This document shows positions 41,001 through 63,842 of a DNA stretch of 64,000 nucleotides, in pieces (positions within the stretch are counted from its first letter, which is position 1; every line of letters begins with the position of its first letter). Made by a program: the position numbers and the translations under genes. This DNA comes from Schmidtea nova (taxonomy: Eukaryota). The DNA is taken from NCBI GenBank assembly GCA_044892505.1, contig CM097882.1, positions 44,950,001-45,014,000 of the forward strand, written 5' to 3'. The notes beneath the pieces were generated by a model. That model worked only from the letters and a program-made list of their open reading frames with translations. It was not told the DNA's origin and did no database searches.

Positions 41001-41130
41001 TAGTAAATTATATACTAGCTACTAAGGCCTACGGCTAATAGAACGATAAACCAAGTAGGTTGATCGACATAAATATCGATGGTCGATGATAGAGTCTGTC
41101 AGTTAACCTAAAATTCCATTTCAGAGTGAC

Positions 41131-41766: not shown

Positions 41767-41943
41767 TCACGAGGACGACACCCCAATGAACGAACACCTG
41801 TTGTAAATTAAAAATATATGTATCCATTTAAAAGGGTTTTGTTTTGGTTTTGGATGCATGTGGAATGAGTAAGGATAAGGGTGCAGTTGTTTAACAATAA
41901 AATGGTGACTGAGAAACCAAACGATACATACATACCCTAGTTA

Positions 41944-42917: not shown

Positions 42918-42935
42918 TGGGGGCTCAGCCGGGAT
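42918..42935 (+). promoter_or_regulatory. Primer-binding site, tRNA-Pro type
   Basis: TGGGGGCTCAGCCGGGAT matches the canonical tRNA-Pro PBS TGGGGGCTCGTCCGGGAT at 16 of 18 positions. Confidence 0.8.
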
Positions 42936-43471: not shown

Positions 43472-43930
43472 ATGGAGAACAAAATAAAAGAAATGCAAAC
43501 GTTTTTCGAAACAAACAATGAAACAGTGGAGACAATAACGAGAAAGTTAAAACGACTCGAAGTAGGAGAATATCATGAGCCGACAAACAACACAGAAAGA
43601 GCGGAAATGATGATGAGCATAAGTGAGAATAAGATAACAGTGGATACAGCAACACGATATCAGTGGTATAGAGAAAGATTAAACAACCCTGAGATGAATA
43701 TCGAGTGCCACAGGCTAGAACAACAGTTAACAACAAAACACGATGAGTGGATAAGAATAACAACAGAACATACGAGACAATATCTGACGTGTTACATCTG
43801 TGAAATGAACAAAATACAGATAATGTTGTTGCCATGTGGGCATTTTCGATTCTGTAATGAATGTAAAATAAATGAACGATGTCCTATGTGCAACCTTCCC
43901 GTATCCGAGAAAATAACAGTGTACTTGTAA
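43472..43930 (+). CDS. IAP-type C-terminal RING finger (C3HC4) protein without BIR domains, 152 aa
   Basis: CYICEMNKIQIMLLPCGHFRFCNECKINERCPMCNLPVSEKITVYL-stop has the spacing and extreme C-terminal position of IAP/MDM2-type RINGs; coiled-coil N-half. Confidence 0.8.
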   Translation: MENKIKEMQTFFETNNETVETITRKLKRLEVGEYHEPTNNTERAEMMMSISENKITVDTATRYQWYRERLNNPEMNIECHRLEQQLTTKHDEWIRITTEHTRQYLTCYICEMNKIQIMLLPCGHFRFCNECKINERCPMCNLPVSEKITVYL

Positions 43931-44981
43931 TAGAAATAAAGTTTTGAACAAGTGCAGTTGTTATTGAAATTATGAGGGTTTAATAATGATTTGGTAAAAA
44001 TGACCTAAGTAATTATGAGCTACTTACGAGTAGTCCGTTAAGCACCCATTTGGGGGAACCAACTGATCAACTTACCCGAGATGTGTAGAAAGGGGCCAAT
44101 CGCGGATATTGGAAAGCTCTTGTGATGTGACTGATCACCACATCGTGCATCAGTGGACCAATGCGATCTTTTTATATATTTTGGTTGGGGTGAAAGGTAG
44201 GGATAACTCAATGAGGTTTAGGCGCGTGCAGAAAAACTATAAAAATAGGATGTTAGAACTGATCAGTAAAGAGAGAGAGAAAGCAATGAAATGAGTAAGA
44301 TGAATAACGAAACGTGGTATATGATGAAAGGCACGTAATCAGCTCGCATAAGGTAAAATCAAGTAGAAAGGTTGACGAATCAATAATAGAATAAAGGGGT
44401 ATAACAGATGAACCGAGTAAATGGAAAACTCGAGGTTAAAGGAAATCCTTGAAAGAAAGGAAATGATAAAAGGGGTCCTAGAGAGAAAGGATTTGCCCAT
44501 AGTTCTTGAAAGATAGAACTTAACGAAACGCGACAATAGATTCTCCGAAGAAGCATAAGTGACCACTGGGAGGAACATCCCGAAGCAACACATGCAACCA
44601 CTGAGAGATGATATTTCGAGTTTTCGTTCGTGAGCATAGGTCTCATAGTGAGCATAGGTCTCGTCATAAAAATAACATCCTAGTGAGCATAGGTCTCGTC
44701 ATAAAACACAACATCATAGTGAGCATAGTTCTCGTCCGTAAATATAAATCTCGTAGTGAGCAGAGTTCTCATTAATAAACACAAGACCAGCGAACATAGT
44801 CCTCATCAGTGAGCGTAGTTCTCATCAACAAACATAGTCACCACAGTGAGCTTAGTTCTCATCAGGAAACATAATTCCTGTAGTCACCATCAGTGAGCAT
44901 AGTTCTCATCGGGGAACATAGTCCCCGGAGCAAAGAGTTTCCATCAGTAAGCAAAACCCTCATAACAACCATGTTTTGCCA

Positions 44982-45304
44982 GTGAGCATAGTTCTCGTCA
45001 GTGAGCATAGTTCTCGTCAGTGAGCATAGTTCTCGTCAGTGAGCATAGTTCTCGTCAGTGAGCATAGTTCTCGTCAGTGAGCATAGTTCTCGTCAGTGAG
45101 CATAGTTCTCGTCAGTGAGCATAGTTCTCGTCAGTGAGCATAGTTCTCGTCAGTGAGCATAGTTCTCGTCAGTGAGCATAGTTCTCGTCAGTGAGCATAG
45201 TTCTCGTCAGGGAGCATAGTTCTCGTCATTGAGCATAGTTTTCGTCATTGAACATAGTTCTCGTTAGTGAGCATAGTTCTCAGCGGTGAGCATAGTTCTC
45301 GTTC
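44982..45304 (+). repeat. 19-bp tandem array (GTGAGCATAGTTCTCGTCA): 12 perfect and 5 diverged copies, with degenerate spaced copies at about 44627-44930
   Basis: Counted directly from the sequence. Confidence 0.95.
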
Positions 45305-45627
45305 GAAATAAAATATTGAGTAAAAGCCCACGAGAAAGACGACGAAGTGAGGCAGATGAGGACCAAATTAAGCACAAAACTATCCGGATAGTGAAGAGCA
45401 ATAAGCGATAATGGAGATGAATAAATGATAATGAGGATAAATGATGAATAGTGAAAATGAATAGCGAATAATGAGGAATAAGGGTTGAAAGAAACCGAGG
45501 TAATAATGAGAGAGTTGAAGGTGCGCACCTGGGTATTGATAAATGCGAGTAAAGCTGATTATGTGGCCTAATGATGTTAAAGTATGCATACAGAGGAGTA
45601 GTAAAGTAAAGTGAGTAAGTGAAGGGT

Positions 45628-46090
45628 GCTGACTGGAAAACCCAGCAGACCATGAGATTCGAGGGGAATAAAATGAAACCGGTTTGGTAAGACAGGTAAA
45701 GTGGTAAAGACGCTAGCTGGAAAACCCAGCAGGTCAATAATAACGAGTAAGAAAGATAGAGGGAATAAAAGTGAGTAATAACAAAGTAGTGAAATTGAGG
45801 ACGCTGACTGGAAGACCCAGCAGGTCAAAAGTGATGATCATCGGAGTAAAGAGCAGTTAAAAGTCGATAGTAAAGAGATAAATGGAGAGTAAAAAGAGCG
45901 CTGACTGGAAAAAACCCAGCAGGCTAATGAAACGACAATTGAGGTCAAGAATAATGAAGCAGAAGTAAAAGGTGAGATTAAGAGCGCTGACTGGAAAACC
46001 CAGCAGGTTAATGAGATAATGAGTGATGTTGAGAGTAATAAAGTCGAGATAAAAGGTGAGATTAAAGGTGCTGACTGGAAAACCCAGCAG
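45628..46090 (+). repeat. Six spaced copies of a 21-nt stem-loop motif GCTGACTGGAAAACCCAGCAG
   Basis: Starts at 45628, 45712, 45803, 45900, 45986, 46070; period 84-97 nt; purine-rich, partly divergent spacers. Confidence 0.9.
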
Positions 46091-46967
46091 GCCAACGAGA
46101 GATGTCAGTTGAATCAAAGGTGAGTAGAGATGAGAATTGAAATGAAGTAGTAAACGCAGTGTGAATAGGAAATAAAGCGAATAGTGGAGAAACAGAGTAG
46201 TCGACAGATAAGGGGAAATTTGAACTCAGAGCCAGAGAAGCCTGAGAAAAATAAAGGGAATAATAAGAGCGCTGAGCGACAAAGTAATTGGGGAACTGGG
46301 GAAAAGTAATTGGTGTATTTGATAAAGAATAGATAATTGATACGACTGCATAGATAATTTAAATAGACTTAAAATCAAGGGAAATGGGAAAAATGGGGAT
46401 CTTCATGAATTATGACTACACCCGTGAGAGGGACGAGAAACACGATAATGGGGACGTATCGTGTAAGTGATTATTTGTTTTAAGGAAACAAATCAATCAA
46501 GCAATTCAAAGCAATCTAGCAGTCAGAGCAATCAAAGGAAACAAATCAAAGAAGAAGCAAAGCAAAAGCGGAGTAGAAAATCAGTTGAGAATATAAGAAG
46601 TTGAGGAATAGACAAAATTGAGGGACGAGAAACAAGATCAGGTATAATACCAATCTTAACGGAAGCAGAAAGAAAAGCAGCAAAAAGGACAAGAACAGGT
46701 AACAAACCTAAGCAACAAAAGAACAAACAAGTAGAGATCAGCGACAATTCGAGTAATAAAGAGAATCAAGAAGAAACCCCAGAGGATCCAGAAGTACGAA
46801 ACGAAGTAGAAACGATAGACAGTGAACTAGTCAGGGAAAACAGAACAAGAAGCGAATCAAGAGATAACGAAACAGAGAGTAGTGAAGAAGAAGAGTCGAA
46901 TTCAGAAACAAGTGGTGAACTAGAAGCAAAGAAAACTAGTACAGTATTCCAAGACAGTGGAATCGGG

Positions 46968-49900
46968 ATGAGTGATCACAGAGAGGATCTAAGAGAAAAA
47001 TTCAAGGGCGAACCATTCAATGGAGACGCCAGTAGATTGGATACGTTTCTGAAGGAATTTGGCATATTTGTGGATATATGCGGATGGAGTGCAGAAACGT
47101 TGGCAAATCGAATCCCGCTATACTTGAAAGATAGCGCATTGGATCTGTATATCGAAAAGAGATCGGGAAGTAATCCACCCAGAACGTGGGAAGCGATCAA
47201 GGAGTTCTTCCAACAGACGTTTGGGATAAACAAAGTGCTGAATGAAGCATTCGATGAGTTTTCAGCAAGAAAACAAAGGAGAAACGAGTCAAATGCGGTG
47301 TACGCAAGTGAATTAAGAAAGTTGGCGAAACTGGCGTTCAACAGAGGAAGCCCAGTAGACGAAGAATTGATGACAGCGTTATTCGTACGAGGTCTCAGGA
47401 GACCTGACATCAGAACACAAGTGGGATGCAAAGGATGTAAAACAGTAGATGAAGCGTTGGAAGCAGCCAACCTATTCGAATTGCATATGGCAATGAACGA
47501 CATGAGAATTACGGCGGTAATGGGAAAAACGACAGAAGATGAAGAACAAGGAAAAAGAAATATGAATCAAAGTATTCCCCATTCGCAGAGATTGTTCAAA
47601 GAACCGCCAGCGAGGAAAAATAACGGATATATCACAGTAAACACGAATGGAGGAAATAGTTACAATGACAGGCAGAATAGGCAATGTCAGACGTGTGGGA
47701 AAAGCGGACATTGGCAACAAGATTGTTTTCAGAATGTAGCCTGCAAACTGTGTGGACAAAAAGGTCACTCAGAAAATCGATGTTATGGGAAAACGTGTTA
47801 CACATGTGGAAAAACCGGACACATGTCAAGAGACTGTAATCAACAGAGAAGTTGGTCAAACAGTGGAAATAGACCGAATTACGGGAATCGACCAAGCTAT
47901 GGGAATCAGGGTCAACAACGGAATAACCCAAACAGCAGTGCAAATGAAGCCAGTATGAAAGAAGCCAAGTTGAGACAGGAGGTATCCAGATTACACGAGA
48001 TAATCGAAAGCATGGCAAAAGGAAGCCAGCAAGCTGCTCAACCAAAGATAAACATGATCCAGTTAATAGAAGCTGAGGCCGAAAGGGAAAATAGAGAAAG
48101 TCAACAGAAACATAATCAAGAATGGGCTAGAGTACGACGAGAAGAAGAACAAGTCAGGCAACAACGATTACAACAGTTAAAAAAGGGAAATCCAAGGATC
48201 AACATGATGCGAGCAATGATGGAAGAGAAGCAGCAAGATGAGTCAGACGGGTTAGAAGTTAAAGAGAAAAGAAATGAAGAGCAGGAACAAGAAGAAGTGA
48301 ATCAGGAAGTAGAAACTGCAGAACAGAATAAAAAAGATGAAGAAGGGGAAAAAGAAACGGAAACAGAAAAAGAAACAGAAAAAGAAGCGAATCAAGAAGA
48401 GGAAGTAAGAATCAAACAAAAGGGAATGATAGTGATCATGCCGAATGATCATTGGTTTCGATTCAAATATGATGTAAAAGAAGAAGTGGGAAGATTGTTC
48501 AATAAAGTAAATAAGATGATTCCGGGAGTGACAAAACTGCCCAGAGAAGCATTCCTACAAACAGAGGATTTACCGGAAGTAAAGTTGAAGATGACTGATA
48601 TATGGGAAGATATGGGAGTAACAGAGACGAAAATGAACGTGATGATCATCAGAGAGGTGGAACCGGAGAAAATCCCACCACCAGTGAAACATCAAACCCG
48701 GATCAGTCGAATATTCAAGGGAAAAATAAGACGAAGACGGTTGGAAGAAATAGACGAATTGGAGAAAAGAATGGGAAAAGCTGAAATAACGAGAAACGAA
48801 AATGAACTAATACAGGAAGTTAGCAAAAACGAAACGAGACCAACCGCACATATTGGGATGCTGAGACACCCAAGACAGGAGTTGTCAGATGAAGAAGACG
48901 ACAGCGAAGTTAGCAATCTGGCAGGAGACATGCTAAAGGAACCGGAAAACGAGGACAAAAAGATGGAAGTAGTCGAGACAATAGAAACGATGTCAGTAAA
49001 GGAAGACGAAATTCAGAAGTTGATGGATAATGCGTTAGAAGTAATCCATAACGAGGAGTATATCGACAAGAAACGATACCGAAAGTTCATACGAGCAGTA
49101 TGGCAAATGAAGTATAAAGAGTGGTTACAAGAAAGAGAAGTGAGAGTAATACAGGAGTTCATAGAAAAGTTATTGAAAGAACCACTCAACGAATACGTAA
49201 TACAAATATGGATAAACGAGTGTTCACCGAGAATCTGGATAAGGAACCCAATGACGGATGGAATTTACAGATGGGTTGAGGACAGATTGGGAAGCTCGTA
49301 CAAAGACAAATTCATATATTCGGAAAACGGATTGGTGAGAAAAGGAACGCATATGATAGACACAGGCATCTGGCCAGGAGAAATAACGACGTTATCTATA
49401 TGCAACACCAAAAAGGAAGAGAATCTACAAGGAATCGTCAAAGAAGCGAATACGTGTTATGAGATGAGAATAAAACCTCAGTTGGTAGAGGCAAAGGAAA
49501 GAATCTCGGCAGAGAACTTGAATACGATGATAGAACAGATCATCCAACAAATCAAGAAACATCGAAAGGAATTGACGAAAAGCGAGTATGAGAATTTGAA
49601 ACAGTGTATCGAGAACATACGAGATACCAGTCAAACGAGACACTCAAATTTCAAAACGGATAGGTTAATCGCCAAGATGGGGAAAGAAATGTTTAAACGA
49701 GGAGAGGTATCAGATCTGAAGATTACCGTGAGATTGCCGAACGAAGAGATAAAACAAATTGAGGTAATACCAGATAGTAAAGTGGGAGAAATAGTAGATG
49801 TCATCAATGAGACGATATTACAACGAGAACGGGAAGAAGAATTCGAGGATGACATTGCGATAAAATACAAAGAACACCTACTGAATGAACGTGACGAAAG

Positions 49901-50645
49901 ACGAGCGTATAAAATCGGCATATGGGATAATTATCAGACAATAAATGTCATCAGAATGGATGATGTGCCGAGGGTAACACCAAGAGATGAGGAAAGGAAA
50001 AAGAAACGACAAGAGGACGTTATGCGTAAGTTGAGGCAAATAGTAGAAATCTATCGGAACTGGCAGATGAAGCCAGAATGGGAGACAATATTAGGAGAAG
50101 TGGATCTTAACAGACGACGATTGACGCCAGTAGAGAAACAATGGGATAACAAAGAGAAATGTTGGAAAGTGAAAAGAGGCGTGTATGAAGAAGATCCGGA
50201 AGGAGAAGACAGATACGAAACGAATACGAAACGGATATGTATGGTAACAAGGAGAATATTACCAACGGACTTAGACGGACCAGAAACTGCAGTAATATGG
50301 GCAGAATTGGAGAAACAGAAAACGAGTGAATTGATCGAGCTGTTGAGAGGAAATACTCGAGGAAAAAGACAAACAATAAAAGGCTTAGCAGGTTTTATAA
50401 TCTCAAATGGAGAAGACATAACGAACTTGAGAAAAGTAGCTAAAGCGATAGCAGAATACAAGAGAGTTAATGAGTGGTGTCCAGAGCAACTAGACGATGT
50501 AATAAAAAAGTGGAGAAACAAAGAGTTTGCGGAGGAAACGCCACAGAAAATACATTTGAGGATAATGTATCCGAATCAGAGAAAAGAAGAATTTTGGGTG
50601 ATGCTAACAGAAAAAGTGAAAAGTGTTAAAGAGAAACTGATGTAG
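46968..50645 (+). CDS. gag: Gag-containing polyprotein segment 1 (capsid-like domain, 3 CCHC zinc knuckles, acidic/coiled regions, ubiquitin-like domains)
   Basis: PFNGD...FLKEF...W....A..IPLYLKDSALD capsid-like N-terminus; three CX2CX4HX4C knuckles at 47685-47837; ends at a TAG that is in frame with the next ORF. Confidence 0.9.
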   Translation: MSDHREDLREKFKGEPFNGDASRLDTFLKEFGIFVDICGWSAETLANRIPLYLKDSALDLYIEKRSGSNPPRTWEAIKEFFQQTFGINKVLNEAFDEFSARKQRRNESNAVYASELRKLAKLAFNRGSPVDEELMTALFVRGLRRPDIRTQVGCKGCKTVDEALEAANLFELHMAMNDMRITAVMGKTTEDEEQGKRNMNQSIPHSQRLFKEPPARKNNGYITVNTNGGNSYNDRQNRQCQTCGKSGHWQQDCFQNVACKLCGQKGHSENRCYGKTCYTCGKTGHMSRDCNQQRSWSNSGNRPNYGNRPSYGNQGQQRNNPNSSANEASMKEAKLRQEVSRLHEIIESMAKGSQQAAQPKINMIQLIEAEAERENRESQQKHNQEWARVRREEEQVRQQRLQQLKKGNPRINMMRAMMEEKQQDESDGLEVKEKRNEEQEQEEVNQEVETAEQNKKDEEGEKETETEKETEKEANQEEEVRIKQKGMIVIMPNDHWFRFKYDVKEEVGRLFNKVNKMIPGVTKLPREAFLQTEDLPEVKLKMTDIWEDMGVTETKMNVMIIREVEPEKIPPPVKHQTRISRIFKGKIRRRRLEEIDELEKRMGKAEITRNENELIQEVSKNETRPTAHIGMLRHPRQELSDEEDDSEVSNLAGDMLKEPENEDKKMEVVETIETMSVKEDEIQKLMDNALEVIHNEEYIDKKRYRKFIRAVWQMKYKEWLQEREVRVIQEFIEKLLKEPLNEYVIQIWINECSPRIWIRNPMTDGIYRWVEDRLGSSYKDKFIYSENGLVRKGTHMIDTGIWPGEITTLSICNTKKEENLQGIVKEANTCYEMRIKPQLVEAKERISAENLNTMIEQIIQQIKKHRKELTKSEYENLKQCIENIRDTSQTRHSNFKTDRLIAKMGKEMFKRGEVSDLKITVRLPNEEIKQIEVIPDSKVGEIVDVINETILQREREEEFEDDIAIKYKEHLLNERDERRAYKIGIWDNYQTINVIRMDDVPRVTPRDEERKKKRQEDVMRKLRQIVEIYRNWQMKPEWETILGEVDLNRRRLTPVEKQWDNKEKCWKVKRGVYEEDPEGEDRYETNTKRICMVTRRILPTDLDGPETAVIWAELEKQKTSELIELLRGNTRGKRQTIKGLAGFIISNGEDITNLRKVAKAIAEYKRVNEWCPEQLDDVIKKWRNKEFAEETPQKIHLRIMYPNQRKEEFWVMLTEKVKSVKEKLM

Positions 50646-52445
50646 GAACTACCATTCCACCTGCAACATCAAGGACGATCGTTGGATAATAATTTAGAAA
50701 TCTGGCTGACACCAGTACAATTGGATTTAATGAATACGCTAACAGTGGCACAGATAGTGGGTCAACCACTAAAGTTTAAAGAGGAAAAGAAAGCGAAAGG
50801 AAGCATGAGTACACCAAGTCCGATGAAGTCAACAATGACCCCAGGAACAAGTTCAGGACAAGCAAGGACAACACCAATAAAAACGAGAGAGAGAACACCG
50901 CCAGAAGCGTATGACGTCGATGAGATACTAACAGACAGTGACGAAGCGATAGAAGAATTAACGAAACTGACTCAAAAACCAACGGCGAACATTTTTGACA
51001 GAATAATAGAGATGCCAATAACGTCACCAGCAGAAATCGACGATCAAGGAGTGGAACAGGAGGTAGTCATAGAAATGGTAAACGATTCGGAAGATGAACA
51101 AGAACAACCACAGTTTACTCAAGAAATGGAAAGATCGTTAGAACAACGAGCAAACGAAGGAAGAGATGTTACAGAGGAAACAGGAAGAGCAACGAGATTC
51201 GTAGAAACCGGAACTGGAATGGAAAAACGACCAAGAGGGAGACCAAAGATAGATCCAGCAACAGCAATTCCAAAGACAAGAGAAGAAAGGAGACAAGAGC
51301 AATGGGAGATTTGCTTGAAGAAACTAGACAAAATCGCAGAAATCAGAGGAAAAGAGGAGAATCAAGTCTGCCAAGGAGAAGAATGGCTCACCAAAACGAT
51401 AATGGATGTATTAGCGATAATTGACCCAGAATTAAAGAATCTGTGGCGGATAAACGAACCCAGTACAAAGGCAAGGATGCTACACAACGCGATAGCACCG
51501 ATTATGCCAGAATTAATTAAAGCGAAAACAAAATCGAATCATCTAGATTGGCAAGGAACCACGATGTTGATAAAAAGGCTACTTAATGGAGCAGAAACAG
51601 ACAGCAAATATCTAGTGGCAATCTCGTATACGATATACAATTTGTTAACGCTAAGCCGAGGAAGTCCGAAGTCAAGTCCGATGGGAAGACATATTAAAAA
51701 TACGGCGATGATTATCGAGAAAGAAATTGAACCATATATCCTCAGGAAAGGAGGATGGGAAAAGTTCATAAAAGAGAACCAGACAAAAGAAGGTTCAAAC
51801 GTGATGAGAAAGAAACTCGAAGGAGTATTGAGGGAAATGGAGAATAGACAAACGATGCAAGGAAACGGAAGATCGACGTTGAATCTAAACTCGATAATCA
51901 TGATGATGCTAGTATGGTTGTTAAGCACAGAGGGTGTAACAACGTTCGAAGTATTTGATTGTGATCAAATGAAGTTAGGAGAAAAGTACTCATTGAGAGG
52001 TACGGAGCAATGCAAAGATGCAACTCCAGTAGAGTTGAGAGAGATCAAAAAGGAACAATGGTACCACGTATATCAAGAAGCAGAACTAATAAAGACAATG
52101 GTGAATGAATGCAAGGTACAGAAGACGAGATTCGCATTCTATTGTGGGAGAGGACATTATTCAGCAATTGTCATGCCAGGAACGGAAAGAGAACCAATCG
52201 TGTTGCAAGGGGAAGACTGCGAAGCATTATTTAAACATGGAGAAGTAACAACGAGAGATAAAATCAAGATAAGAGGAAAGCCAGGAATGATGTTACAGCA
52301 GACGTATTATGTAGCAGGACGAATTACGGGAGGAGAAGGGTATTGTCAAGGAGAAACCTACCCAATATTTGGAGTTACCTGCAACCAACTTAGTGGTAAT
52401 GGATACGTACATAGTCGAACTGAAAAGCTACGAAGCATTCTTTGA
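50646..52445 (+). CDS. Polyprotein segment 2: Bcl-2-like domain, signal peptide and N-terminal part of a chuvirus-type glycoprotein
   Basis: Open in the gag frame directly after the TAG. BH2-like IEPYILRKGGWEKFIK at 51726-51773; hydrophobic SIIMMMLVWLLSTEG at about 51891-51935; then FEVFDC..C..CKVQKTRFAFYCG. Confidence 0.8.
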   Translation, partial: ELPFHLQHQGRSLDNNLEIWLTPVQLDLMNTLTVAQIVGQPLKFKEEKKAKGSMSTPSPMKSTMTPGTSSGQARTTPIKTRERTPPEAYDVDEILTDSDEAIEELTKLTQKPTANIFDRIIEMPITSPAEIDDQGVEQEVVIEMVNDSEDEQEQPQFTQEMERSLEQRANEGRDVTEETGRATRFVETGTGMEKRPRGRPKIDPATAIPKTREERRQEQWEICLKKLDKIAEIRGKEENQVCQGEEWLTKTIMDVLAIIDPELKNLWRINEPSTKARMLHNAIAPIMPELIKAKTKSNHLDWQGTTMLIKRLLNGAETDSKYLVAISYTIYNLLTLSRGSPKSSPMGRHIKNTAMIIEKEIEPYILRKGGWEKFIKENQTKEGSNVMRKKLEGVLREMENRQTMQGNGRSTLNLNSIIMMMLVWLLSTEGVTTFEVFDCDQMKLGEKYSLRGTEQCKDATPVELREIKKEQWYHVYQEAELIKTMVNECKVQKTRFAFYCGRGHYSAIVMPGTEREPIVLQGEDCEALFKHGEVTTRDKIKIRGKPGMMLQQTYYVAGRITGGEGYCQGETYPIFGVTCNQLSGNGYVHSRTEKLRSIL

Positions 52446-55400
52446 ACCAACAACAGGAGAAATGAAAACGTTATCCATGTGTAAGATTGACAGAAGCATG
52501 TGTCAAACGGGAATGTCAACATTGGTATACAAACCAAAAGTGAACGAGTGTCAATTACAACTGCTACAAGGAGCAAAGTTCGACGAAATTCAAGGAAAAA
52601 CTTTCCAAGAAGAGGACGATGATGACAAAGCTAGAGCAAAACATCTCAAGGAAGCTTTAGAAAATAAAAGACAATTGAGACCGGATCATAGAGAGAAACG
52701 GATAGAAATGAGAACCACACCAACAGTGTTGATAACCACAAATCAGGATGTGGGCATGAGATTCATAAAAGGGAAAGCCACCCTTAAGTGCAGTACAACA
52801 GTATACGAAACAAACTACCCAGGAATATACGTGTCAAAGCAAGAATTGCCGAATGCGAAACCCAAGATCGACACAATGGATATCAAGCTACACTTGTATG
52901 TGAATAATAAAATGGATTTCTTATTCCATAGAGGACAAGCCTCATTGCAAAAAGTGTACTATGATCTGATAAACAACGATTGTATACTGAACCGGGAAAT
53001 ATTGAAGACAAAGTTGGCCGTAGCAATTACGAATCCAGATAGCGCGATGCCATTATTACCACTAAGAGAAGGACATTTCGGAAGAGTGGTCGGAGAAGCA
53101 ATGTATGTATACATTTGCGAAAAGACACACGCATCGCTAGCAGCAACAACGCAGTTGAAACCTGGACAATGTACAAACGAGTTAGAAGTCCATTATAAAG
53201 GAAAAGTACGATACGTTCAACCGGTGACGAGAATCATCAATCCACCAGGGTTTGAACCAAATCCATTCAACTGTAGTAACGCGTACGGACCGCTTTATCA
53301 GAAGCCAGATGGCAAATGGGTCATGTTCCCAGGAAGAACTGAAGTATTAGCACCAAGAGAATTTGAGCTAATGCAGTTGTCAAAGGATAGACAGTTCAGT
53401 GACGTAGATGTCTCAAACAACGGAATCTATAGTCCAAAAGATCTGGAAGCAGCAAGACAGAATATACTATTCCCGGCAAGAAGAGAAGCATTACTGTCAA
53501 ATATCGTAACGATAACGGGAGGAACGAATTATCGAGAAGGACCGAATTACGAACTGCTGTTGTCACCGGCACATTTCAAGAAAGCCACAGAAAATATGAT
53601 GAAGGCAATGTGGGGAAGATTCCTGATATTCGGACAAATGATGGCTGGAATACTGGGAGTGATATTAATAATACAAATCGTCAGAGTAATACTAACGCAA
53701 ATGTTAGCGTGTTTCGATATCTACAAGAGAGAGAAGAAAGTGAATTGGAAAATGGTAGTAGGGTTTTTACCATTCCTTGCGAAAACGATGGTGTTACACG
53801 GACATTCAAAAGATATACATCGAATAAAAAGATTGTTGAAGATACTTGCAAAAATGAAAGGAACAAACGAAGATGTCGGAAGGAAATTCAAAAAGATAAT
53901 GCAAGACGAGCAAGCAAGACGACAACTGAAGAAGGAAAGGAAAGGATTATGGGAAAGAGTGAGAGGATATCGAACACAAGATGATTCAAGTAATGATGAC
54001 GATGATGATGACGATCGAGGAGGACAAGCGAATATAAACCAGATTCCCCAGTATGCCGAAAAGAGTGCAGTTGAGAATTGGAGATACAGTGCTCCACCCC
54101 AGTCGATGTATAACAAACCGATATACAAAGCGAAGCCGAATATGATGCAGATGATGCCGATGACAAGTATATACCCGATAATTCCAGAAGGATGCAAAGT
54201 AAAACGAGGTAAAAGCGTAGACTCGTTGGAAGACACGCACACGATAGCAGTTATGTCCACAAATATGGGACCGATTTTAACAACAACCATAGAAATAAAC
54301 AGAAAAGAAATCGAAGCAATGATCGATACAGGCGCGAATATTTCGGCAATCGACATTAATTATATACCAGAGAAAAATCAAGGAGAAATCGAGAAGACGA
54401 ATGTACATGTAATCGCGTGCAGTCAAGAGACAGTAGAAGTAGCCGGAAGATGGTTTGTAAAAATTAAGCATCGAGGTGCAGAGATCAACACGTACATCGC
54501 TGTAATACCATCGCTGAGTGTACCATGTATTATTGGAACTGACCTGATGCCAGACCTGTTCAAGGAAATCGTAATTGATCTAGGAGCAATGAAGCTAAAA
54601 GACAGAACAGGAAAAATCTGCAGAATGAAAGTTAAAGTGGCAAGTGCGGAACAAATAGTAGTGCCAGCGAGGCACGAATTGATGTGCTACGTCAAGATCG
54701 ATTCGACAATAAAAGGAGATATGGTATTCGAACCAAGTAAGAAGTTCGAAGCAAAGAAAGAATTACCAATGGCAAGAGAATTGGTCACGATAAACCAAGA
54801 AGGAGAAATACCGATCAATCTGGTGAACTTCGACGAAGAGGACAAGATAATATACGAGAATGAGAGATTGGGTAAATTGACACCCATGTCCGAAATCGAA
54901 ATACCAGACAAGAACGAGAAAAGCAAAGACGAATTACCATGGACAATCGACAGTGTGTTGTTAGACGAACGACAAAAAGAACAGTTACAGAAACTGTTGA
55001 TGGAATATAAAGATATATTCGCAGCATCAGATCTGGATTTAGGAACATGTGACGTAACATTGCACACGATACCGTTGACGGACGAAACGCCAATCGCATT
55101 ACGACCATACAAACTGGCAGAAGCTCAAAAAGCAGTGGCAGAAGAAGAAGTACAAAAGATGTTAGATGCAGAGGTCATCGAACCTAGTTGCTCACCCTGG
55201 CAATTCCCAGTGGTGATGGTGAAAAAGAAGGATGGAACTCAGAGATTCTGTATCGATTACAGACGATTGAACGCAGTTACAAAAAGAGATACGTACCCAC
55301 TGCCAGACATAAACGAAATGTTGTTGACGCTACAAGGAGCAGCCTATTTCACGTCACTGGATTTAAAGAGCGGATATTGGCAGATCAAAATGAAAGACGA

Positions 55401-58400
55401 AGATAAAGAGAAGACAGCATTTACAATCGGACGAGATCTGTACCAATTCAAGAAAATGCCGTTTGGGTTAACAAACGCGCCAGCATCATTCCAGAGATGC
55501 ATGAATTTCGTAACACATGGCATAAAACAATGCATGGTGTACATCGACGATCTATTGATCTACTCCGCAACATTCGAGGATCACTTACAAGACATCAGAA
55601 ATGTGTTCGTGAAATTGAGACAGTGGAAACTGAAATTAAAGCCGTCAAAGTGCGATTGGGCAAAAGAAAAAGTGACATTCTTAGGTCACATTGTATCGGC
55701 AAAAGGAAAAGAACCAGATCCAAGGAATATCGAGAAAGTTAAAGAATGTCCACCACCCAAGACAGTGACTCAAATACAAGAATTTTTGGGATTGTGTGGA
55801 TATTATCGAAAGTTTATCAAGGACTACGCAGGAATATCAAAGCCAATGCAAGAATTGGTAAGACAAGATGTGTCGTTTGTATGGGGAGGAGAACAGCAAG
55901 CAGCATTTGAAACATTACGAGATAAGCTGATTACAGCACCAATACTGGTCCATCCAGATTTTAAGAAGCCATTTCTGTTGGCAACAGATGCAAGTGGATA
56001 CGCAGCAGGAGCAGTACTAGGCCAATTTGATGAAGAAGGCAAAGAGAGAGTAATCGGATATTATAGTCGAACGTTCAGGAAACATGAAAAGAATTACTCA
56101 GTCACGGAAAGAGAAGCCTATGCGATAATATTGGCAATCAAGCATTTCAAGTACCTATTGTGGGGTCATGAAATATATATCACGACGGATCATCAACCAT
56201 TGGTATGGTTAGGCCAACATAAAGAATCATCAAGTAGATTGATGCGTTGGGCGATGCAGTTGCAAGAATACTCGCCATTCATAAAGTTTAAGGCAGGAAA
56301 AGCAAATGCAAACGCAGATTGCATGTCAAGGTTTACATTTCCAGAATTGGTGAACCTAAATGCTCTAAAAATATGTGCATTAATAGCGGAAGATTTGGAT
56401 TTCAGCGAACTAAGGAAAGATCAACTCGAAGATGAGGAGTTGGGATTGATCAGCAAGTATCTGAAAGAAAGGGAAATGGAAATATTCGGCAAGAACCAAA
56501 CGTTGTGCGAACATATGCAGAAATATCAACATAGATATGTGATGGAAAAAGGATGGTTATTGATACAAGATGGAGAACGAAGATTAATGTGCTTACCTGC
56601 GAATAGACGAAAGGAAATCATGACTCAATATCACGACGGAAAATTAGGCGGACATATGTCAGCGAAAAAGACAATCGGGAGATTGAGACAAAAGTATTTT
56701 TGGCCAACCATGGAAGATGATGTGAAAGAATGGATAAAGAACTGCTTAACCTGTGCGACAAGAAAGAACGTCGGAACAAAGTGGAAAACACCACTAAAAC
56801 CTATGCCAATACCTGCAGAACCTATGGCGACGATAGCAATGGATGTAGTTGGACCATTGCCGGAAAGTTTAAAAGGAAATCAGTATATATTAGTAGTCAC
56901 GGACTATCTAACAAAGTTCCCAGAAGCATTCGCAATGCCAGATCAAAAAGCAAAAACAGTCGCGAGAATATTGGTGGAAGAAATATGCTGCAGATACGGA
57001 ACACCCAAGAAAATCCTAACGGATCAAGGAACAAATTTCATGAGTGAAATATTAGACGAAGTTACGAATTACTTCCGAATTGCGAAACTACGAACATCCC
57101 CATACCATCCACAAACGAACGGTCAAACAGAAAGATTCAATGGGACATTAATACGCATGTTGTCGAATTACGTCAGTAAACATCAGACTGACTGGGATGA
57201 ATATATAAACCTGTGTTTAATGGCATACAGAATGTCAATACATGCGGCAACAAAGCTAAGTCCATTTCAACTGATGTACGGAAGAGATTGCAACTTACCG
57301 ATCGATTTAGAATACCAACCACCATTATCACAGTACATGGAGGTTGACGATTACGTTACAAAGTTCAAAGAAAGAATGCAAGAAATCTGGAAAACAGCGG
57401 AACTGAACATCAAGTTCTATCAAGAGAGTTACAAGGATCTACATGATCAGAAAAAGAATGTGAAAGCACATGATTTAAAAGTTGGAGATTGGGTGATAAT
57501 TGAGACACCAGAGATAATACCCGGTACGGTCAAGAAACTCCAACGACCAGGCAAAGGGCCATATGAAATAACAACAGTAAATGAAAATAATGTGCGAGTA
57601 CGATTGGTGAACAATCCATTGGTAAGACCAATATACGTGAATGCATGTCGATGCAGGAAAATACCAAAGACAGCAACTGTATTACCGGAAAAACGGGTGA
57701 TGACAAGATCACAGACGGCGAGAATCAGTATGTTGCGAGTACAACAAAAGCCGCAAACAAGTCTAGAAGACAACCGAAGGGAGATAATAGACATCAAAGA
57801 ACTGGCAAAGAAAACCAGAGAAATTATACCAGAATGGAAATGGTGGTTCGATTTCAATATACTGTCAGAAGTTCGAAAGAATGTAATGGAGTATGCGAAG
57901 GATAGAACAGCGCATCCAATAACAAGAACGTTACTAGAAGAAATCCCTCAAACATTGAACCTACAGGATAAAGACGGTAACACCGCGTTGCACAATGCAA
58001 TCAAGCACGGTGGAAACGAGAAAGTGAAAGAGATTGTGGAGATGATACTTGAAGGTGGAGGAGAAATTGACAAAGTGAATTGGGAAGGAATCACTCCACT
58101 TATGATGATGACGATTCATGGAAGAAACGACGAGATAATCAAGTTATTCGGAAACACCAGATCGAATTGGATGGCAAAAGATAAAGAAGGACGAACATTC
58201 CTGAATCATGCAATTGATAGAGCGAATCACCGAATACTAAAGTATATTACGGAAAATGCCACGTGGGAAATCGATGAACTAACTAGAGGATCGATCATGA
58301 AACAAGCAATCGGGGTAAAGAACAGTAAAACCTGGAGAATACTGCTAAAGTGGAAACGACCAGAAGGAGATTCGTGGGTCGTAAATTGTAATGAAGTATT

Positions 58401-61400
58401 CACAAGGGGAGAAAATGCGTTACTGAAACATTTACTAGAGGTAACATACGATCCAAAAACACTTGCAGTGTTAATAGCGAGAGATACGCTACGGGTTAGC
58501 GAGAACCCAAGAGAATACAAGCTGGAAGACAGAAAGAAAGAATTATTCGGATTAATCAAGAGATGGTGTGATAAACAATGGAATCCGGATATGAGCTTCG
58601 AACATTTCTATGACATCCAAAAGCAGCACAAAGAAATAAGCAAGAGATATAAAGAGCTGGTGGAAGCATTGAAATATGGACAGTTCTTCAGACAAGCAGT
58701 GTATCAAGACCAACGAATGAAACAGATGCAAACGCGAATAAGAAGCAAAGCAGTGTTGTTCAATGCAAAAGCGGAATATCAAGAGAGATTAGACGCAATA
58801 GTAGCGAAAGCGCAAGAAAGATTATCGGAGTTCAAAGAGAATAAAAACTCATTGGAGATACTAGGAGCAATTACAGAGAAAGTACACAGATACGCACAAG
58901 GAGATTATAACGAGAGTGACATAGAAACGATCAAAAATCAAATGCCAGTGGCATTCCTATTATCAAAGGATGGGAGATTGCCGATACACTGGGCATTACG
59001 TCGAAAGAAAGAAAACGAAGTGCTGGAAATAACGAAAGCGATGGTCAAGTGCGAAGCAGACATGAATACGGTTGACGATAACGGAGATACAATCATGATA
59101 ATCGCAGCAAGAAAGAAGACGAAGTTGAAAGTGCTAAATGAATTATACGAAGCAGGAGCAAAAATCGAAGGGAAAAATGGAAAGAATAATTCCATCATAG
59201 ATATCGCAATACAGTGGAACAACTTCGAGATGATCAAGTTCATAAAGTCCATCAAGAGACATGAGGACATAGAATACCTGGCAAATAACGTAAAGAATTT
59301 CAGTCTAACAGTAATGATACACGACGTAGAGAAAACAAGAGCATTACTAACATGGGTGAATCCGATCACCAAGGAACCAGTGTTCAAGATCAATGACCAT
59401 ATGGAACAGAATCAGAATTGGTGTATCAGAAGCGCGTTATTAAGACACAAAAAGCCAGAGATAGTAGAAGAATTCTTGAAGAGAAGAGATTTGAAATTTA
59501 CGAACAACTCAAAGGAACAGGAACGAATAGGAAGATGGAAAGACTTGTTCAGAAAATATGTGAATGAATGGACAAATGCCAAGGAAACAATCAAGCAAAG
59601 TAGACTAAAAGACATAGAACCATCCAAGGATATGGAAATACGTGAATTCGAGTCTAGCACACTCGCGGTTCAAGCGTATGAAAGATTGATTGAAGAAATT
59701 AATGTCGAGGACGACATTTTCAAAGGACCAGGGGGTGGTTACAGAGACTTCGACGACAAAAGTAACAACGAAAAGAACAACGAAGATAACGACAACAAAA
59801 GAACGGAGAATAATGAAAAAGAAAGACAAGAAGAACCGAAGCCAACGAGAAATGACAAGAAAGGAGAAGCCGAAGAACGAGAAAACAACGGAACAAAAGA
59901 CGAACATGCGAACTATGGAAAACGAACAGGAAGTCTACTTTTGAGACCGGAAATGTTGTGTATTGCGATATTGATAACAATCATCGGACAAGGCGAAGCC
60001 AAGAAACAATACGTCACGCTGGAAATAATCAGAGGAAACGAAGTATACGAAAGAATATGCTGGAAAGAAAACCTGAAGAAAAACGATACGCTGAAATGTA
60101 TATTGTCAGACTTGAAGCGAGACGTCATCCAAATCAAAGGATTGGAGAAAGAAAAGTCATACATAATATGCGCAATAAAGCAGAGAGGAGAACCAAAAGC
60201 ACCTCAAGTAACTGCATGTCAATTATACAAAGCAACAGAAGCGCTGAATATACAGAAATGGATTGGAAAAAGAAGCGAAGAGACAACGAGAAGAACAGAA
60301 GTGGAATCGGAAAAAGGGAAGAATCAAACGGAAGCAGAAGAGGGAATCAGAAACCGAACAGAGAAAGAAAGAATAACCAAAAATCCAGCGGGCAAATTAA
60401 CATTCCAACCAGAATTGATATGTGTAGCATTAATATTAATCCTCATTAAGAGAATCATGGAGGACATAGATATCAGCGTGATGACGTTAGTAAATATCCA
60501 AGATCAACGAACAACGAACGGAAGATGTTGGGGACGAAACAATGAGGTAATTGGAATCAGCGAAACAAGAGAAAGTCGAGAGGCAGAGACAAATGAGGAA
60601 ATCGAGATAACTGAAATGGAAACAGAGAAAACATGTGAACTATGCCTCATGGAAAAAGCAGCAAACGGAAACAGACCAGGAACAAGCGAGTGTAAAGTGT
60701 TCCAAGCAAAGGAGATAATTGAGTTCCCAAAAAGAAAGAAACAAGATCAAGAAACGATTGCGAATGAAGTAGTAACAGTAGAGATAAAAAACATTGGTCG
60801 GAGAACAATTGGGATGTGTTGGAGAAAATACATCGGAGTACCGACCAACAACATAATACCGCAATGCAGAACGAGAGAACGAGGAATCCCGTTTCAACTA
60901 AATGGATTCGAAGTCGGACAAGCATATGAAATTTGTGTAATCCGAAGAATAAGAGAAATAATACAAAGAAGCCTGGAGTGCAAACTGTACAAGACGCCAG
61001 AGCAAATTAACGGAACAAGAACGATTGAAATGGGAGGAAGTCGACAGAGGAAAAGAAAGTCAAAAAGAACCACGACAACAAACAGTCAAGGAACTCAACA
61101 GGCAACAACAGAAAGGACGACAATAGAAAACGAACCGGAATCAACAACGCTGATAATATGGAAGATCCATAAAAAGGTCCTAGAAATCTGTTGGACACTA
61201 ATGCCGAACAGTATGGGAAAGTCCCCACGAAACTGTCAAAAGACATCAAATGATAAAGGAGAAATAATCGAGGTAGAAATGAGGAAGTTGAAAACAAACG
61301 CAGAATACGAAGTGTGTGCAATCGAAGAAGTGGATGCACAAGGAAATCCACAAGAAAGGTGCGAAACCTATTACACGCCGATAAAGAGGAGAATCAAAAA

Positions 61401-61866
61401 GTTAGAATTCCGAGAATTGAGTCAGAAGAGAGAACAAAACGAGAAGGAAGAAACAATACCAAATCAACAAGAAAAATGGGAACCAGAGAAAGTGATCGAA
61501 GAAGTCAGACGGAGACAACAACAATACGAACAATGGGAAGCAGAATGGAAAGGTCAATATGGCGTGATGATAAACCAAAGTGAAACTCCGAAGATGAGCA
61601 TTGGGAAAACAATAATGGGATTAATCAGCATGGGAGTATTCATAGGGTGTATACCACTGATAACGATCATGATAGTATGTTGGAGATATGGCATGAGAAA
61701 TAAGACCATAGCAGTAAAATGGCCGGACGTAAAGGTCACGAATTACAACATAAAACTACCAAAAGAAGTACGAGAAGAACTGAAAAGACGATCAAAACAC
61801 GAAGAGATGTGGGTACAGATCGAGGACGAGGAACTGTTCGAAGGAAAACCAGTGATAGTTGTATAG
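52369..61866 (+). CDS. pol: Polyprotein segment 3 (3165 aa): rest of glycoprotein with TM, protease, RT, RNase H, integrase, ankyrin repeats, 4 FN3-like repeats, TM
   Basis: DTGA at 54325; YIDD at 55540; TDAS RNase H near 55985; HHCC finger 56629-56757; D-D-E motifs MDVVGP, TDQGTNF, GQTERFN; DKDGNTALHNA ankyrin near 57970; TM segments at about 53614-53715 and 61612-61683. Confidence 0.95.
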   Translation: MELPATNLVVMDTYIVELKSYEAFFEPTTGEMKTLSMCKIDRSMCQTGMSTLVYKPKVNECQLQLLQGAKFDEIQGKTFQEEDDDDKARAKHLKEALENKRQLRPDHREKRIEMRTTPTVLITTNQDVGMRFIKGKATLKCSTTVYETNYPGIYVSKQELPNAKPKIDTMDIKLHLYVNNKMDFLFHRGQASLQKVYYDLINNDCILNREILKTKLAVAITNPDSAMPLLPLREGHFGRVVGEAMYVYICEKTHASLAATTQLKPGQCTNELEVHYKGKVRYVQPVTRIINPPGFEPNPFNCSNAYGPLYQKPDGKWVMFPGRTEVLAPREFELMQLSKDRQFSDVDVSNNGIYSPKDLEAARQNILFPARREALLSNIVTITGGTNYREGPNYELLLSPAHFKKATENMMKAMWGRFLIFGQMMAGILGVILIIQIVRVILTQMLACFDIYKREKKVNWKMVVGFLPFLAKTMVLHGHSKDIHRIKRLLKILAKMKGTNEDVGRKFKKIMQDEQARRQLKKERKGLWERVRGYRTQDDSSNDDDDDDDRGGQANINQIPQYAEKSAVENWRYSAPPQSMYNKPIYKAKPNMMQMMPMTSIYPIIPEGCKVKRGKSVDSLEDTHTIAVMSTNMGPILTTTIEINRKEIEAMIDTGANISAIDINYIPEKNQGEIEKTNVHVIACSQETVEVAGRWFVKIKHRGAEINTYIAVIPSLSVPCIIGTDLMPDLFKEIVIDLGAMKLKDRTGKICRMKVKVASAEQIVVPARHELMCYVKIDSTIKGDMVFEPSKKFEAKKELPMARELVTINQEGEIPINLVNFDEEDKIIYENERLGKLTPMSEIEIPDKNEKSKDELPWTIDSVLLDERQKEQLQKLLMEYKDIFAASDLDLGTCDVTLHTIPLTDETPIALRPYKLAEAQKAVAEEEVQKMLDAEVIEPSCSPWQFPVVMVKKKDGTQRFCIDYRRLNAVTKRDTYPLPDINEMLLTLQGAAYFTSLDLKSGYWQIKMKDEDKEKTAFTIGRDLYQFKKMPFGLTNAPASFQRCMNFVTHGIKQCMVYIDDLLIYSATFEDHLQDIRNVFVKLRQWKLKLKPSKCDWAKEKVTFLGHIVSAKGKEPDPRNIEKVKECPPPKTVTQIQEFLGLCGYYRKFIKDYAGISKPMQELVRQDVSFVWGGEQQAAFETLRDKLITAPILVHPDFKKPFLLATDASGYAAGAVLGQFDEEGKERVIGYYSRTFRKHEKNYSVTEREAYAIILAIKHFKYLLWGHEIYITTDHQPLVWLGQHKESSSRLMRWAMQLQEYSPFIKFKAGKANANADCMSRFTFPELVNLNALKICALIAEDLDFSELRKDQLEDEELGLISKYLKEREMEIFGKNQTLCEHMQKYQHRYVMEKGWLLIQDGERRLMCLPANRRKEIMTQYHDGKLGGHMSAKKTIGRLRQKYFWPTMEDDVKEWIKNCLTCATRKNVGTKWKTPLKPMPIPAEPMATIAMDVVGPLPESLKGNQYILVVTDYLTKFPEAFAMPDQKAKTVARILVEEICCRYGTPKKILTDQGTNFMSEILDEVTNYFRIAKLRTSPYHPQTNGQTERFNGTLIRMLSNYVSKHQTDWDEYINLCLMAYRMSIHAATKLSPFQLMYGRDCNLPIDLEYQPPLSQYMEVDDYVTKFKERMQEIWKTAELNIKFYQESYKDLHDQKKNVKAHDLKVGDWVIIETPEIIPGTVKKLQRPGKGPYEITTVNENNVRVRLVNNPLVRPIYVNACRCRKIPKTATVLPEKRVMTRSQTARISMLRVQQKPQTSLEDNRREIIDIKELAKKTREIIPEWKWWFDFNILSEVRKNVMEYAKDRTAHPITRTLLEEIPQTLNLQDKDGNTALHNAIKHGGNEKVKEIVEMILEGGGEIDKVNWEGITPLMMMTIHGRNDEIIKLFGNTRSNWMAKDKEGRTFLNHAIDRANHRILKYITENATWEIDELTRGSIMKQAIGVKNSKTWRILLKWKRPEGDSWVVNCNEVFTRGENALLKHLLEVTYDPKTLAVLIARDTLRVSENPREYKLEDRKKELFGLIKRWCDKQWNPDMSFEHFYDIQKQHKEISKRYKELVEALKYGQFFRQAVYQDQRMKQMQTRIRSKAVLFNAKAEYQERLDAIVAKAQERLSEFKENKNSLEILGAITEKVHRYAQGDYNESDIETIKNQMPVAFLLSKDGRLPIHWALRRKKENEVLEITKAMVKCEADMNTVDDNGDTIMIIAARKKTKLKVLNELYEAGAKIEGKNGKNNSIIDIAIQWNNFEMIKFIKSIKRHEDIEYLANNVKNFSLTVMIHDVEKTRALLTWVNPITKEPVFKINDHMEQNQNWCIRSALLRHKKPEIVEEFLKRRDLKFTNNSKEQERIGRWKDLFRKYVNEWTNAKETIKQSRLKDIEPSKDMEIREFESSTLAVQAYERLIEEINVEDDIFKGPGGGYRDFDDKSNNEKNNEDNDNKRTENNEKERQEEPKPTRNDKKGEAEERENNGTKDEHANYGKRTGSLLLRPEMLCIAILITIIGQGEAKKQYVTLEIIRGNEVYERICWKENLKKNDTLKCILSDLKRDVIQIKGLEKEKSYIICAIKQRGEPKAPQVTACQLYKATEALNIQKWIGKRSEETTRRTEVESEKGKNQTEAEEGIRNRTEKERITKNPAGKLTFQPELICVALILILIKRIMEDIDISVMTLVNIQDQRTTNGRCWGRNNEVIGISETRESREAETNEEIEITEMETEKTCELCLMEKAANGNRPGTSECKVFQAKEIIEFPKRKKQDQETIANEVVTVEIKNIGRRTIGMCWRKYIGVPTNNIIPQCRTRERGIPFQLNGFEVGQAYEICVIRRIREIIQRSLECKLYKTPEQINGTRTIEMGGSRQRKRKSKRTTTTNSQGTQQATTERTTIENEPESTTLIIWKIHKKVLEICWTLMPNSMGKSPRNCQKTSNDKGEIIEVEMRKLKTNAEYEVCAIEEVDAQGNPQERCETYYTPIKRRIKKLEFRELSQKREQNEKEETIPNQQEKWEPEKVIEEVRRRQQQYEQWEAEWKGQYGVMINQSETPKMSIGKTIMGLISMGVFIGCIPLITIMIVCWRYGMRNKTIAVKWPDVKVTNYNIKLPKEVREELKRRSKHEEMWVQIEDEELFEGKPVIVV

Positions 61867-61989: not shown

Positions 61990-62340
61990 ATGAACCAAGA
62001 AAATATCGAGATGTCAATGATGACAAGATGGAAAGTGCAATGTGACCTGCTAGCCAGAACAGTAAATGAATTACAGAGCCAGTTGACGGCCAAAACGCAA
62101 TTATTAACCGAGAGTTATAACTGTAATTTCGAAGCAATGAACAAAATCGAGATCCAACAAATACAGATAAACGAATTACAGAACGAGAACCGAACATTAA
62201 ATGAAGTGAACAACTGGCAAGCAGAGGAAATTGATCGATTAACGAGACATGAAGAGGAGGAGATACCGGATAGTTGGACGAGCTGGATTGTAAATGAAAT
62301 AGACGTGTATCCAGAGCCAGATTCAACTGAGGATGTATAG
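61990..62340 (+). CDS. 3' accessory ORF, 116 aa, coiled-coil with acidic Trp-containing tail, unknown function
   Basis: ATG-started ORF in the element's A-rich codon style; heptad pattern; CTAG acceptor 8 nt upstream; AATAAA at 62373. Confidence 0.65.
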   Translation: MNQENIEMSMMTRWKVQCDLLARTVNELQSQLTAKTQLLTESYNCNFEAMNKIEIQQIQINELQNENRTLNEVNNWQAEEIDRLTRHEEEEIPDSWTSWIVNEIDVYPEPDSTEDV

Positions 62341-62429: not shown

Positions 62430-63842
62430 ATGAGAGCAGAAAGCGAAGCAGATTACCAAACCATCGAGATTCTAAGAAGAGAAAATCGACAGTGGGGAGT
62501 AAATGTGACGTGTGTAAAGTGTAAAAATCTACTGTTAAAACCGAGGCAAACGGAATGTGGATGCAGGATGTGAACCAAGTGTATATTGCAAATAATCAGT
62601 GAAAGTGAGACAAGAAAGTGTCCAGAGTGTGACGATAAACTACTGATCAACGAGACAAAACCAGATAAAGCAATACAAAAGGAGATCTGGAAGATAAAAA
62701 CAGAGTGTATAAACCAACCATGCGAATGGAAAGAACAAATAATCGAGCTAAGACAACATCTGGAGAAATGTGAAAACAAGAAAGCGATATGTGAAAAGTG
62801 TCAACAGACGATAACCATCAAGCAGTCGAAAAAGCACAAGGATGAGTGCAAAGCAGAGATAATAGAGTGTCAATACTGCGAACAAAGAGAGACGAGAGAA
62901 GTAATTGAAACAGAACATCTCAACGTAGCAGAAGAGAAAGTGTGTGGAAAATTCAGAGGAATTTGTCCAAGTAATTGCGGAGCCGGAGAAGAAGTGATGT
63001 TGAGAGAACATTGGGAACAATGCGAATCAAGACCAAGGAAGTGCGTATGGAGTAAACAAGGATGTTTAGTAAAGAAAACGAGCAAAGACATGAAAGAGCA
63101 TTTAGAAACAGAGACAGTACAACACGCAGAGATACTAACAGAAAATTTAAACGGAATGGAACAAACCATACAGAAGCTGGGAAAAGAAATCGAATCTCAG
63201 AGGATAATGACCGAGTTATTACTGGAAACGAGAGAACAATTCGAGCTCACCAGAGAAAAAATGATGGAGAAAATCAAAGTCATAGAGACATTGGTAAAAG
63301 AAGTAAACGTGCGACATCAAATGTGGATACGAGATACAGAGGATATCGAGAGTTTACCTGTTGCGCCATATGTATGGAAAATCAAGAACTTCAACGAAAA
63401 GTTCACAACAGCAAAAGCAGGAAGTCAAGTATTGGTAACAAGTCCACCATTTTATCTGTGGAAAAATGGATACAAAGTTCGAATGAGAATTTATCCAAAT
63501 GGAGATGGATCAGGAAAGGAAACGCATGTGTCATTATTCTTTGCGTTGTGTAAAGGGGGTTACGACGACATATTAGAATGGCCGCTAGAGACAAAGGCGA
63601 TAATGAGAGTGAAAAACTCGAGAGAAACGATTGTGAGAATATTCAAAATTGATGGTAAGCACGAAGCTTACAAAAGACCAACCACAGAATGTTCATTAGC
63701 GACTGGAGAACCAAAATTCATACCACACCAAACAATGTGGGAGATGTTGTACGACGACAACTTATATGTAGAGTTGGAGATCGAAAAGAAAACAAGTACA
63801 ACAGTGATGAACACGAAGTCAACGAAAGGATGGTTGGAGTAG
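62430..63842 (+). CDS. TRAF-family protein (RING - TRAF zinc fingers - coiled coil - MATH) with an in-frame TGA at 62571-62573
   Basis: From ATG 62430: CVKCKNLLLKPRQTECGCRM*TKC...CPEC RING, CxNxxCxW...LxxHLxxC zinc fingers, and MATH motifs YVWKIKNF, SPPFY..KNGYKVRMRIYPNGDGSGKETHVSLFF..KG.YD.IL.WP. Confidence 0.9.

Follow-up and report, generated by a model that had tools for sequence, protein, structure and literature searches.

Env-bearing retrotransposons have been described with one envelope glycoprotein. In planarians, Burro and GYPSM1 are giant Gypsy LTR elements, and the available text on them already reports an env located between gag and protease (PMC6431247). Flatworm errantiviruses have the gene order GAG-ENV-POL, with an Env that is classed as HSV/gB type in the passages at hand (PMC13524379). 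The polyprotein of the planarian nidovirus PSCNV contains ankyrins and matrix-type modules that are cut by signal peptidase, and in the accessible part of the report its authors suggest a role in shedding or transmission (PMC6211748). We describe here a retroelement in a stretch of 64,000 nucleotides from Schmidtea nova (contig CM097882.1; the whole stretch is termed the window) that encodes a second putative membrane protein, here called the cassette, at the end of its polyprotein. All features discussed lie on the plus strand. The element class and its gB-type Env are known already, while the cassette is unnamed in the texts searched, a set that does not cover Grohme 2018. The text of PMC6431247 names, in the parts available, no FN3 domain or C-terminal membrane protein ("fibronectin" has 0 occurrences), and its figure 2A may annotate the region. 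"Fibronectin" also has 0 occurrences in the main text of PMC13524379, whose available passages treat Gag, Pol and Env and leave a second membrane protein unmentioned. Among the papers listed by our literature search, none dealt with FN3 in elements of this kind; Grohme 2018 (figures, supplements) and the Repbase entry may annotate the region. PSCNV differs in that it is an RNA virus with FN2 and not FN3 (PMC6211748, in the part at hand), and we claim no homology to it.

Boundaries and class of the element

The 5' LTR of 3234 bp (39678-42911) is 100% identical to a 3' LTR located past the window end (L013:1888-5121), and the element is flanked by a 4-bp target duplication, CTCT. Identical LTRs and target duplication thus define a 29,444-bp element, measured from LTR to LTR, that was recently inserted. 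Just 3' of the 5' LTR lies a candidate primer-binding site (42912-42940), which we take to resemble that for tRNA-Pro. The long 5' leader contains a RING-finger ORF (43457-43930; PF13920, E 3e-9) and tandem arrays (44646-46092) with 17 copies of a 19-mer plus 35- and 84-bp units.

Judged by its sequence, this is a Burro-type Gypsy retroelement. It shares with Burro/GYPSM1, as the available text describes them, a size of ~30 kb (here slightly below the >30 kb of a review), long LTRs, a ~5,000-aa polyprotein with an in-frame env between gag and protease, ankyrins and TRAF/MATH (PMC6431247). The single polyprotein of ~4,900-5,100 aa is found in sibling copies: of 150 scored matches, 27 belong to frames of 5,076-5,114 aa. 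The copy examined here is itself broken, as its Gag frame is closed by a stop and the reading frame shifts within env. A related family, termed family 2, has frames of 5,140 aa, the length that the text at hand gives for one Burro-like ORF1 (PMC6431247). The Gag-containing frame with CCHC knuckles (46605-50645) is stop-terminated in this copy and belongs to open frames of ~5,086 aa in siblings. Env (51873-53727) consists of a signal-like segment, a Monjiviricetes-type fusion glycoprotein (PF24664, E 3.7e-52 and 1.3e-15), placed upstream of the protease and in frame, and a membrane helix at ~53620-53721. It is split over two frames in this copy: its first half stands, like Gag, in frames further upstream, and its second half begins a 3183-aa frame (52315-61866) that continues through protease, RT, RNase H and integrase (54286-57174) and ankyrin repeats (57946-59247), the latter two blocks assigned by Pfam, and ends with the cassette. 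The original prediction had seen the cassette protein in the usual env position, but the real fusogen sits earlier in the same polyprotein. Gene order and an HSV/gB-type Env are shared with the errantiviruses, and by eye the Env resembles that of Smed_errantivirus_5/6 in the passages available (PMC13524379).

Pfam also identifies a TRAF-like ORF with zf-TRAF and MATH domains (62574-63842), which differs from Burro in being a downstream accessory ORF. For BIR, Bcl-2-like and ubiquitin-like cargo no Pfam match was obtained in the 8 window proteins scanned, while RING was found; BIR is present in an env-less derivative family of the element. Coiled-coil accessory ORFs lie on either side of the TRAF gene (61990-62340 and L013:70-1092) and have look-alikes in family 2 and in the derivative. 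A third small predicted membrane protein with a signal, coiled coil, helix and basic tail is encoded by its own ORF before the 3' LTR (L013:1167-1691), and the derivative retains a similar ORF (L050:3345-4052).

Anatomy of the cassette

The cassette comprises the C-terminal 650 residues: a signal-like segment, four Cys-containing units of ~83 aa, a stalk, a membrane helix and a 60-aa tail. The internal signal-peptide-like segment, SP1 (59920-60000), has a basic n-region, 12 apolar residues and a small-residue c-region, with cleavage after it predicted by eye; it begins near 59920 and not at 59947, where the cassette had been thought to start. Unit 1 (U1, 60001-60246) has four Cys. It is followed by H2 (60400-60453), a paralogue of SP1 with 11 apolar residues and a conserved Cys, and then a conserved dibasic pair. 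In none of the families does unit 2 (U2, 60472-60720) have the second canonical Cys, and unit 3 (U3, 60760-61005) is the unit with a modelled six-stranded FN3-like sandwich, in which the C-C' loop is the most variable stretch. A linker, polybasic and then Thr-rich (61006-61134), leads to unit 4 (U4, 61135-61386), the sole unit with a Trp near the FN3 strand-B position. The charged stalk (61387-61608) carries an NQS sequon common to the four-unit cassettes of families 1-3. The membrane helix, already recognized in the original prediction, is placed at 61609-61683, and the tail follows at 61684-61866.

All 6 of the 6 unit pairs exceed their shuffles, with 0-33 of 2000 shuffles reaching the real score; the weakest pairs are U1-U4 (16/2000) and U2-U4 (33/2000). 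The relatedness of SP1 and H2 is likewise clear, with 0 of 5000 shuffles reaching the score. The four units are thus found where they had been proposed, the hydrophobic segments before units 1 and 2 are indeed related, and a duplicated module of signal plus unit is backed by these tests. The Cys motif suggested for all units fits U3 and U4, but U2 is without its second Cys and Tyr, and U1 has YIIC.

Fold of the units

Canonical FN3 domains have a Trp in strand B and a Leu-x-Pro...Tyr corner. Among these hallmarks, the Trp occurs in U4 only, Leu/Phe and Tyr occur in U1, U3 and U4, and the Pro is absent. None of 8 units reached the Pfam cut-off for PF00041 (best E 0.13, in one unit), a PDB sequence search returned only a weak Tie2 FN3 (E 0.54) and a chitinase (E 5.8), and a viral fold library gave no match at E 0.001. 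A profile of the 8 units against 1.84 billion proteins obtained 54 matches at E 0.001 or better, and fn3 was present in 25 of the 26 scanned. Bacterial FN3 repeats with the same Cys-Trp spacing top this search; no single domain of theirs scores above 22 bits, and they were set aside as donors and are used here as fold evidence.

A single-sequence fold of the ectodomain was unusable (pLDDT 35). Given an alignment of 27 rows built from units of the element itself, AlphaFold2 models U3 as six strands with pLDDT mostly 75-84; U2 and H2 stay below 60, and U4 has no confident fold. When the U3 model was compared with 48,161 solved chains, the best 50 were all FN3-bearing, as assigned by title or known architecture, with Z 6.5-7.6 and none at 8 or above, a range (Z <8) for which the tool warns of common arrangements. 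The rmsd is mostly ~3 Å over 64-79 residues, at 3-18% identity to solved FN3s. Foldseek also lists FN3 proteins for the model, none of them at E 0.001.

Matches to single FN3 scaffolds start near residue 14, by residue numbering presumably after strand A. Since the alignment runs from strand B on, strand A seems to be missing from the modelled U3. Ahead of this unit, a short conserved strand (model residues 113-115) is not docked. In U1 the predicted cut would leave no room for strand A, while U4 may have one. Bacterial FN3 matches place the Cys-Trp at the end of strand C. If the Cys-Trp strand is strand C, one Cys pair would link C to C' and the other F to G, giving two predicted strand-pair disulfides per unit. 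The model thus supports an FN3-type beta-sandwich for U3, and the fold of U1, U2 and U4 would follow by homology. With Cys-Trp on strand C and strand A apparently absent, the units apparently are FN3-like, trimmed domains that fall below the Pfam cut-off. The modelled strands B-C-C'-E-F-G, the E-F Leu...Tyr pattern and a tandem array before a membrane helix are shared with FN3-domain proteins (PF00041; fibronectin, Tie2, NCAM, cytokine receptors); the apparently missing A strand and the two predicted hairpin disulfides distinguish the units from canonical FN3. Thus, the FN3 fold of the original prediction finds support in the U3 model and the profile matches, although not as a complete canonical domain. 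Its view that the protein is not fusogen-like holds as well, with no fusion-protein family in Pfam for the cassette and an FN3-like fold for U3.

Membrane topology

The n-h-c pattern of SP1 is present in all families, and the 11-residue apolar run of H2 is like that of signal segments. Rough insertion energies, estimated from an insertion scale with our own weighting, are +0.4 to +5.8 for H2 and -0.1 to -1.9 for the final helices. In family 3 (~5,650 aa) the cassette is doubled, its later copy having three units, and such a double cassette calls for an even number of membrane crossings in each. If H2 crossed the membrane, the second cassette of family 3 would be inverted, and the invariant Cys pairs and the shared sequon, which are located after H2, would be cytosolic. 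Taken together, these points lead us to regard one lumenal ectodomain as quite probable, with H2 probably being a signal-peptide relic that does not span the membrane. Hydropathy and duplication parity agree in this type I pattern of signal, one helix and tail, so that the topology, left unresolved in the original prediction, now leans to one side. The conserved Cys of H2 and the unpaired Cys of U2 may pair.

Alternatively, H2 could be a true stop-transfer helix with only U1 in the lumen, or H2 and the dibasic pair could form a processing site that frees U1 from a U2-U4 membrane protein. The dibasic pair, present after H2 in all aligned cassettes, fits both, the family-1 H2 is borderline hydrophobic (+0.4), and signal plus unit 1 stands alone in the derivative. 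However, a crossing H2 runs into the family-3 inversion and the cytosolic Cys pairs and sequon, and the second cassette's H2, at +5.8, is much too polar. These points weigh against the crossing but not against the processing site; together, the two versions seem improbable to us.

Families and selection

When 23 units of the three families are aligned, no variation is seen in four columns, namely the Cys-Trp and the last two Cys. Family 2 keeps the full order signal-U1-H2-U2-U3-U4-stalk-helix-tail; cassette parts are 27-53% identical to family 1, compared with 96% for RT, and the tail is as conserved between these families as unit 4 (53%). The double signal...helix cassette of family 3 occurs in 4 of the 4 fetched loci with a long frame reaching the end, and a fifth locus stops after the first helix. 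One family-3 copy (L037:7224-9901) ends after its first cassette and is followed by a family-4-like gag, with second-cassette matches ~19 kb further on, an arrangement that suggests a nested insertion. Relatives of the cassette were found in none of the length classes searched in a set of 5.8 billion proteins (30-276, 1144-3265 and 1750-5571 aa). The search for a host FN3 donor, proposed in the original prediction, found no close one among 50 of the 92 host fn3 places (best 9 bits, Cys pattern in none).

Family 4 (3,393-3,401 aa), which is Env-bearing and by eye resembles Smed_errantivirus_1 as far as the passages at hand describe it (PMC13524379), continues straight after the integrase with a signal and an ectodomain of unrelated sequence, then a helix and a short tail. 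Distinct lineages thus have a second predicted membrane protein at this position. A profile probability of 0.3% speaks against kinship between the family-4 ectodomain and the units. This ectodomain has ~320 aa, looks beta-rich and is of no known family (L043:3763-4953, L046:3342-4535); the ORF after it resembles a DEDD exonuclease by eye, with no Pfam match.

The units are under purifying selection, with a dN/dS of 0.15 (codon bootstrap 0.10-0.21) in 19 family-1 copies. In the same copies dN/dS is 0.13 for the tail, 0.37 for the stalk and 0.03 for RT, and 14 of the 15 canonical unit Cys are invariant, the remaining one differing in 1 of 19. Among 27 copies, predicted strand stretches have values of 0.05-0.16, compared with 0.36 for the C-C' loop and 0.26 for the F-G loop; the U3 C-C' loop reaches 1.9 (interval 0.65-13.6), a stretch picked post hoc and not significant. 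Every value was counted between pairs of related copies that had been selected for their long frames, which makes the intervals too narrow.

The env-less derivative

A complete 25-kb derivative (L048:4350 to L050:9348; LTRs 99.96% identical) is without Gag core, Env, RT, RNase H, integrase and everything from U2 to the tail, and keeps protease, ankyrins, TRAF and BIR-RING. In 14 further stretches of 6-7 kb from this family, env, RT and U2-to-tail were matched in none, and one unit was found in 11. Thus, most of the cassette sorts with the particle genes and not with the host modulators. In the 11 in-frame copies dN/dS is 0.08 for the ankyrins and 0.42 for the single unit, the interval of the latter (0.20-1.06) fitting neither extreme cleanly; its third Cys survives in 3 of 11. 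The idea that the derivative lost its signal peptide was a one-copy impression, as 8 of 11 copies have an unbroken signal h-region; a Lys breaks SP1 in 3 of 11. Signal plus unit 1 therefore persists despite the loss of the rest of the cassette. The derivative is non-autonomous and abundant, with 1295 BIR candidates in the genome.

Role of the cassette protein

Our best explanation, to which we assign a probability of about 0.45, is that host signal peptidase would free the cassette, which as a type I membrane glycoprotein would then act with the particle, likely in attachment. The polyprotein would thread from the cytosol (Gag) to the lumen (Env), back to the cytosol (protease, RT, RNase H, integrase, ankyrins), again to the lumen (units and stalk, with H2 staying lumenal) and finally to the cytosol (tail). 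After the cut, SP1 would be left as a membrane anchor on the ankyrin region. On the particles of the element, the released protein would accompany the gB-type Env and serve as an accessory attachment protein for cells. Herpesvirus gB is a class III fusogen with separate receptor-binding glycoproteins such as gD. The comparison is one of working principle, a class III fusogen plus a second beta-sandwich glycoprotein; there is no homology, gB and gD are encoded by separate genes and not in one polyprotein, and the partnership here is putative. In several viruses, a class III fusogen acts on its own.

Between the receptor-binding protein and the decoy receptor that the original prediction had named as candidates, the genes missing from the env-less derivative tip the balance towards a role tied to the particle. 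However, a helper-dependent element can lose anything supplied in trans, so that this loss does not single out attachment, and a purely particle role leaves the signal and unit 1 kept in frame in 11 copies unexplained. The latter observation would fit if the protein, in the same topology, stood on the surface of the producing cell or was shed and there imitated a host FN3 receptor or acted as its decoy, adding to the host modulators among the cargo (TRAF, ankyrin, RING and BIR). The quantity of such host-modulator cargo, cytokine and adhesion receptors among the fold matches of U3, the conserved tail (dN/dS 0.13) and a polybasic linker that could permit shedding are all compatible with it. Yet in the derivative the cytosolic modulators are under strong constraint, while the anchor and three of the units are gone and the remaining unit is relaxed, and the 50 host loci include no close FN3. 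A decoy is the chief rival to attachment, though rather unlikely in our view.

Co-loss with Env would equally be explained if the protein blocked re-entry of related particles or if its tail aided assembly or budding, both without binding to target cells, and a tail as conserved between families as unit 4 suits the latter. We give these functions little weight, because they do not explain why ectodomain units, and the entire cassette too, were duplicated repeatedly, nor the variable U3 loop with the statistical limits given above. It is highly improbable that the cassette matters mainly via SP1 anchoring the ankyrin region to the ER, with the lumenal part as a passenger. The derivative does retain ankyrins together with SP1, but a Lys breaks SP1 in three copies with conserved ankyrins, and purifying selection on the units largely refutes the idea for autonomous families.

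Building on the attachment reading, we tentatively propose a wider scheme, which is possible and carries less confidence: planarian Gypsy elements would have a two-glycoprotein envelope made from one polyprotein, with a gB-type fusogen and a separate FN3-fold attachment protein. The slot behind the integrase would be swappable, filled independently with different ectodomains in each lineage and tuned by domain duplication, and the FN3 units lacking strand A would be a distinct disulfide-braced variant. If true, a selected and repeatedly duplicated second surface protein would bear on cell-to-cell movement and tissue preference of Burro elements, and the ectodomain offers a small expressible handle for finding its cell-surface partner. 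As a separate observation, Pol lies C-terminal to the Env membrane helix (53620-59920) and thus could be packaged as the cytoplasmic tail of Env once the Env signal cuts off Gag.
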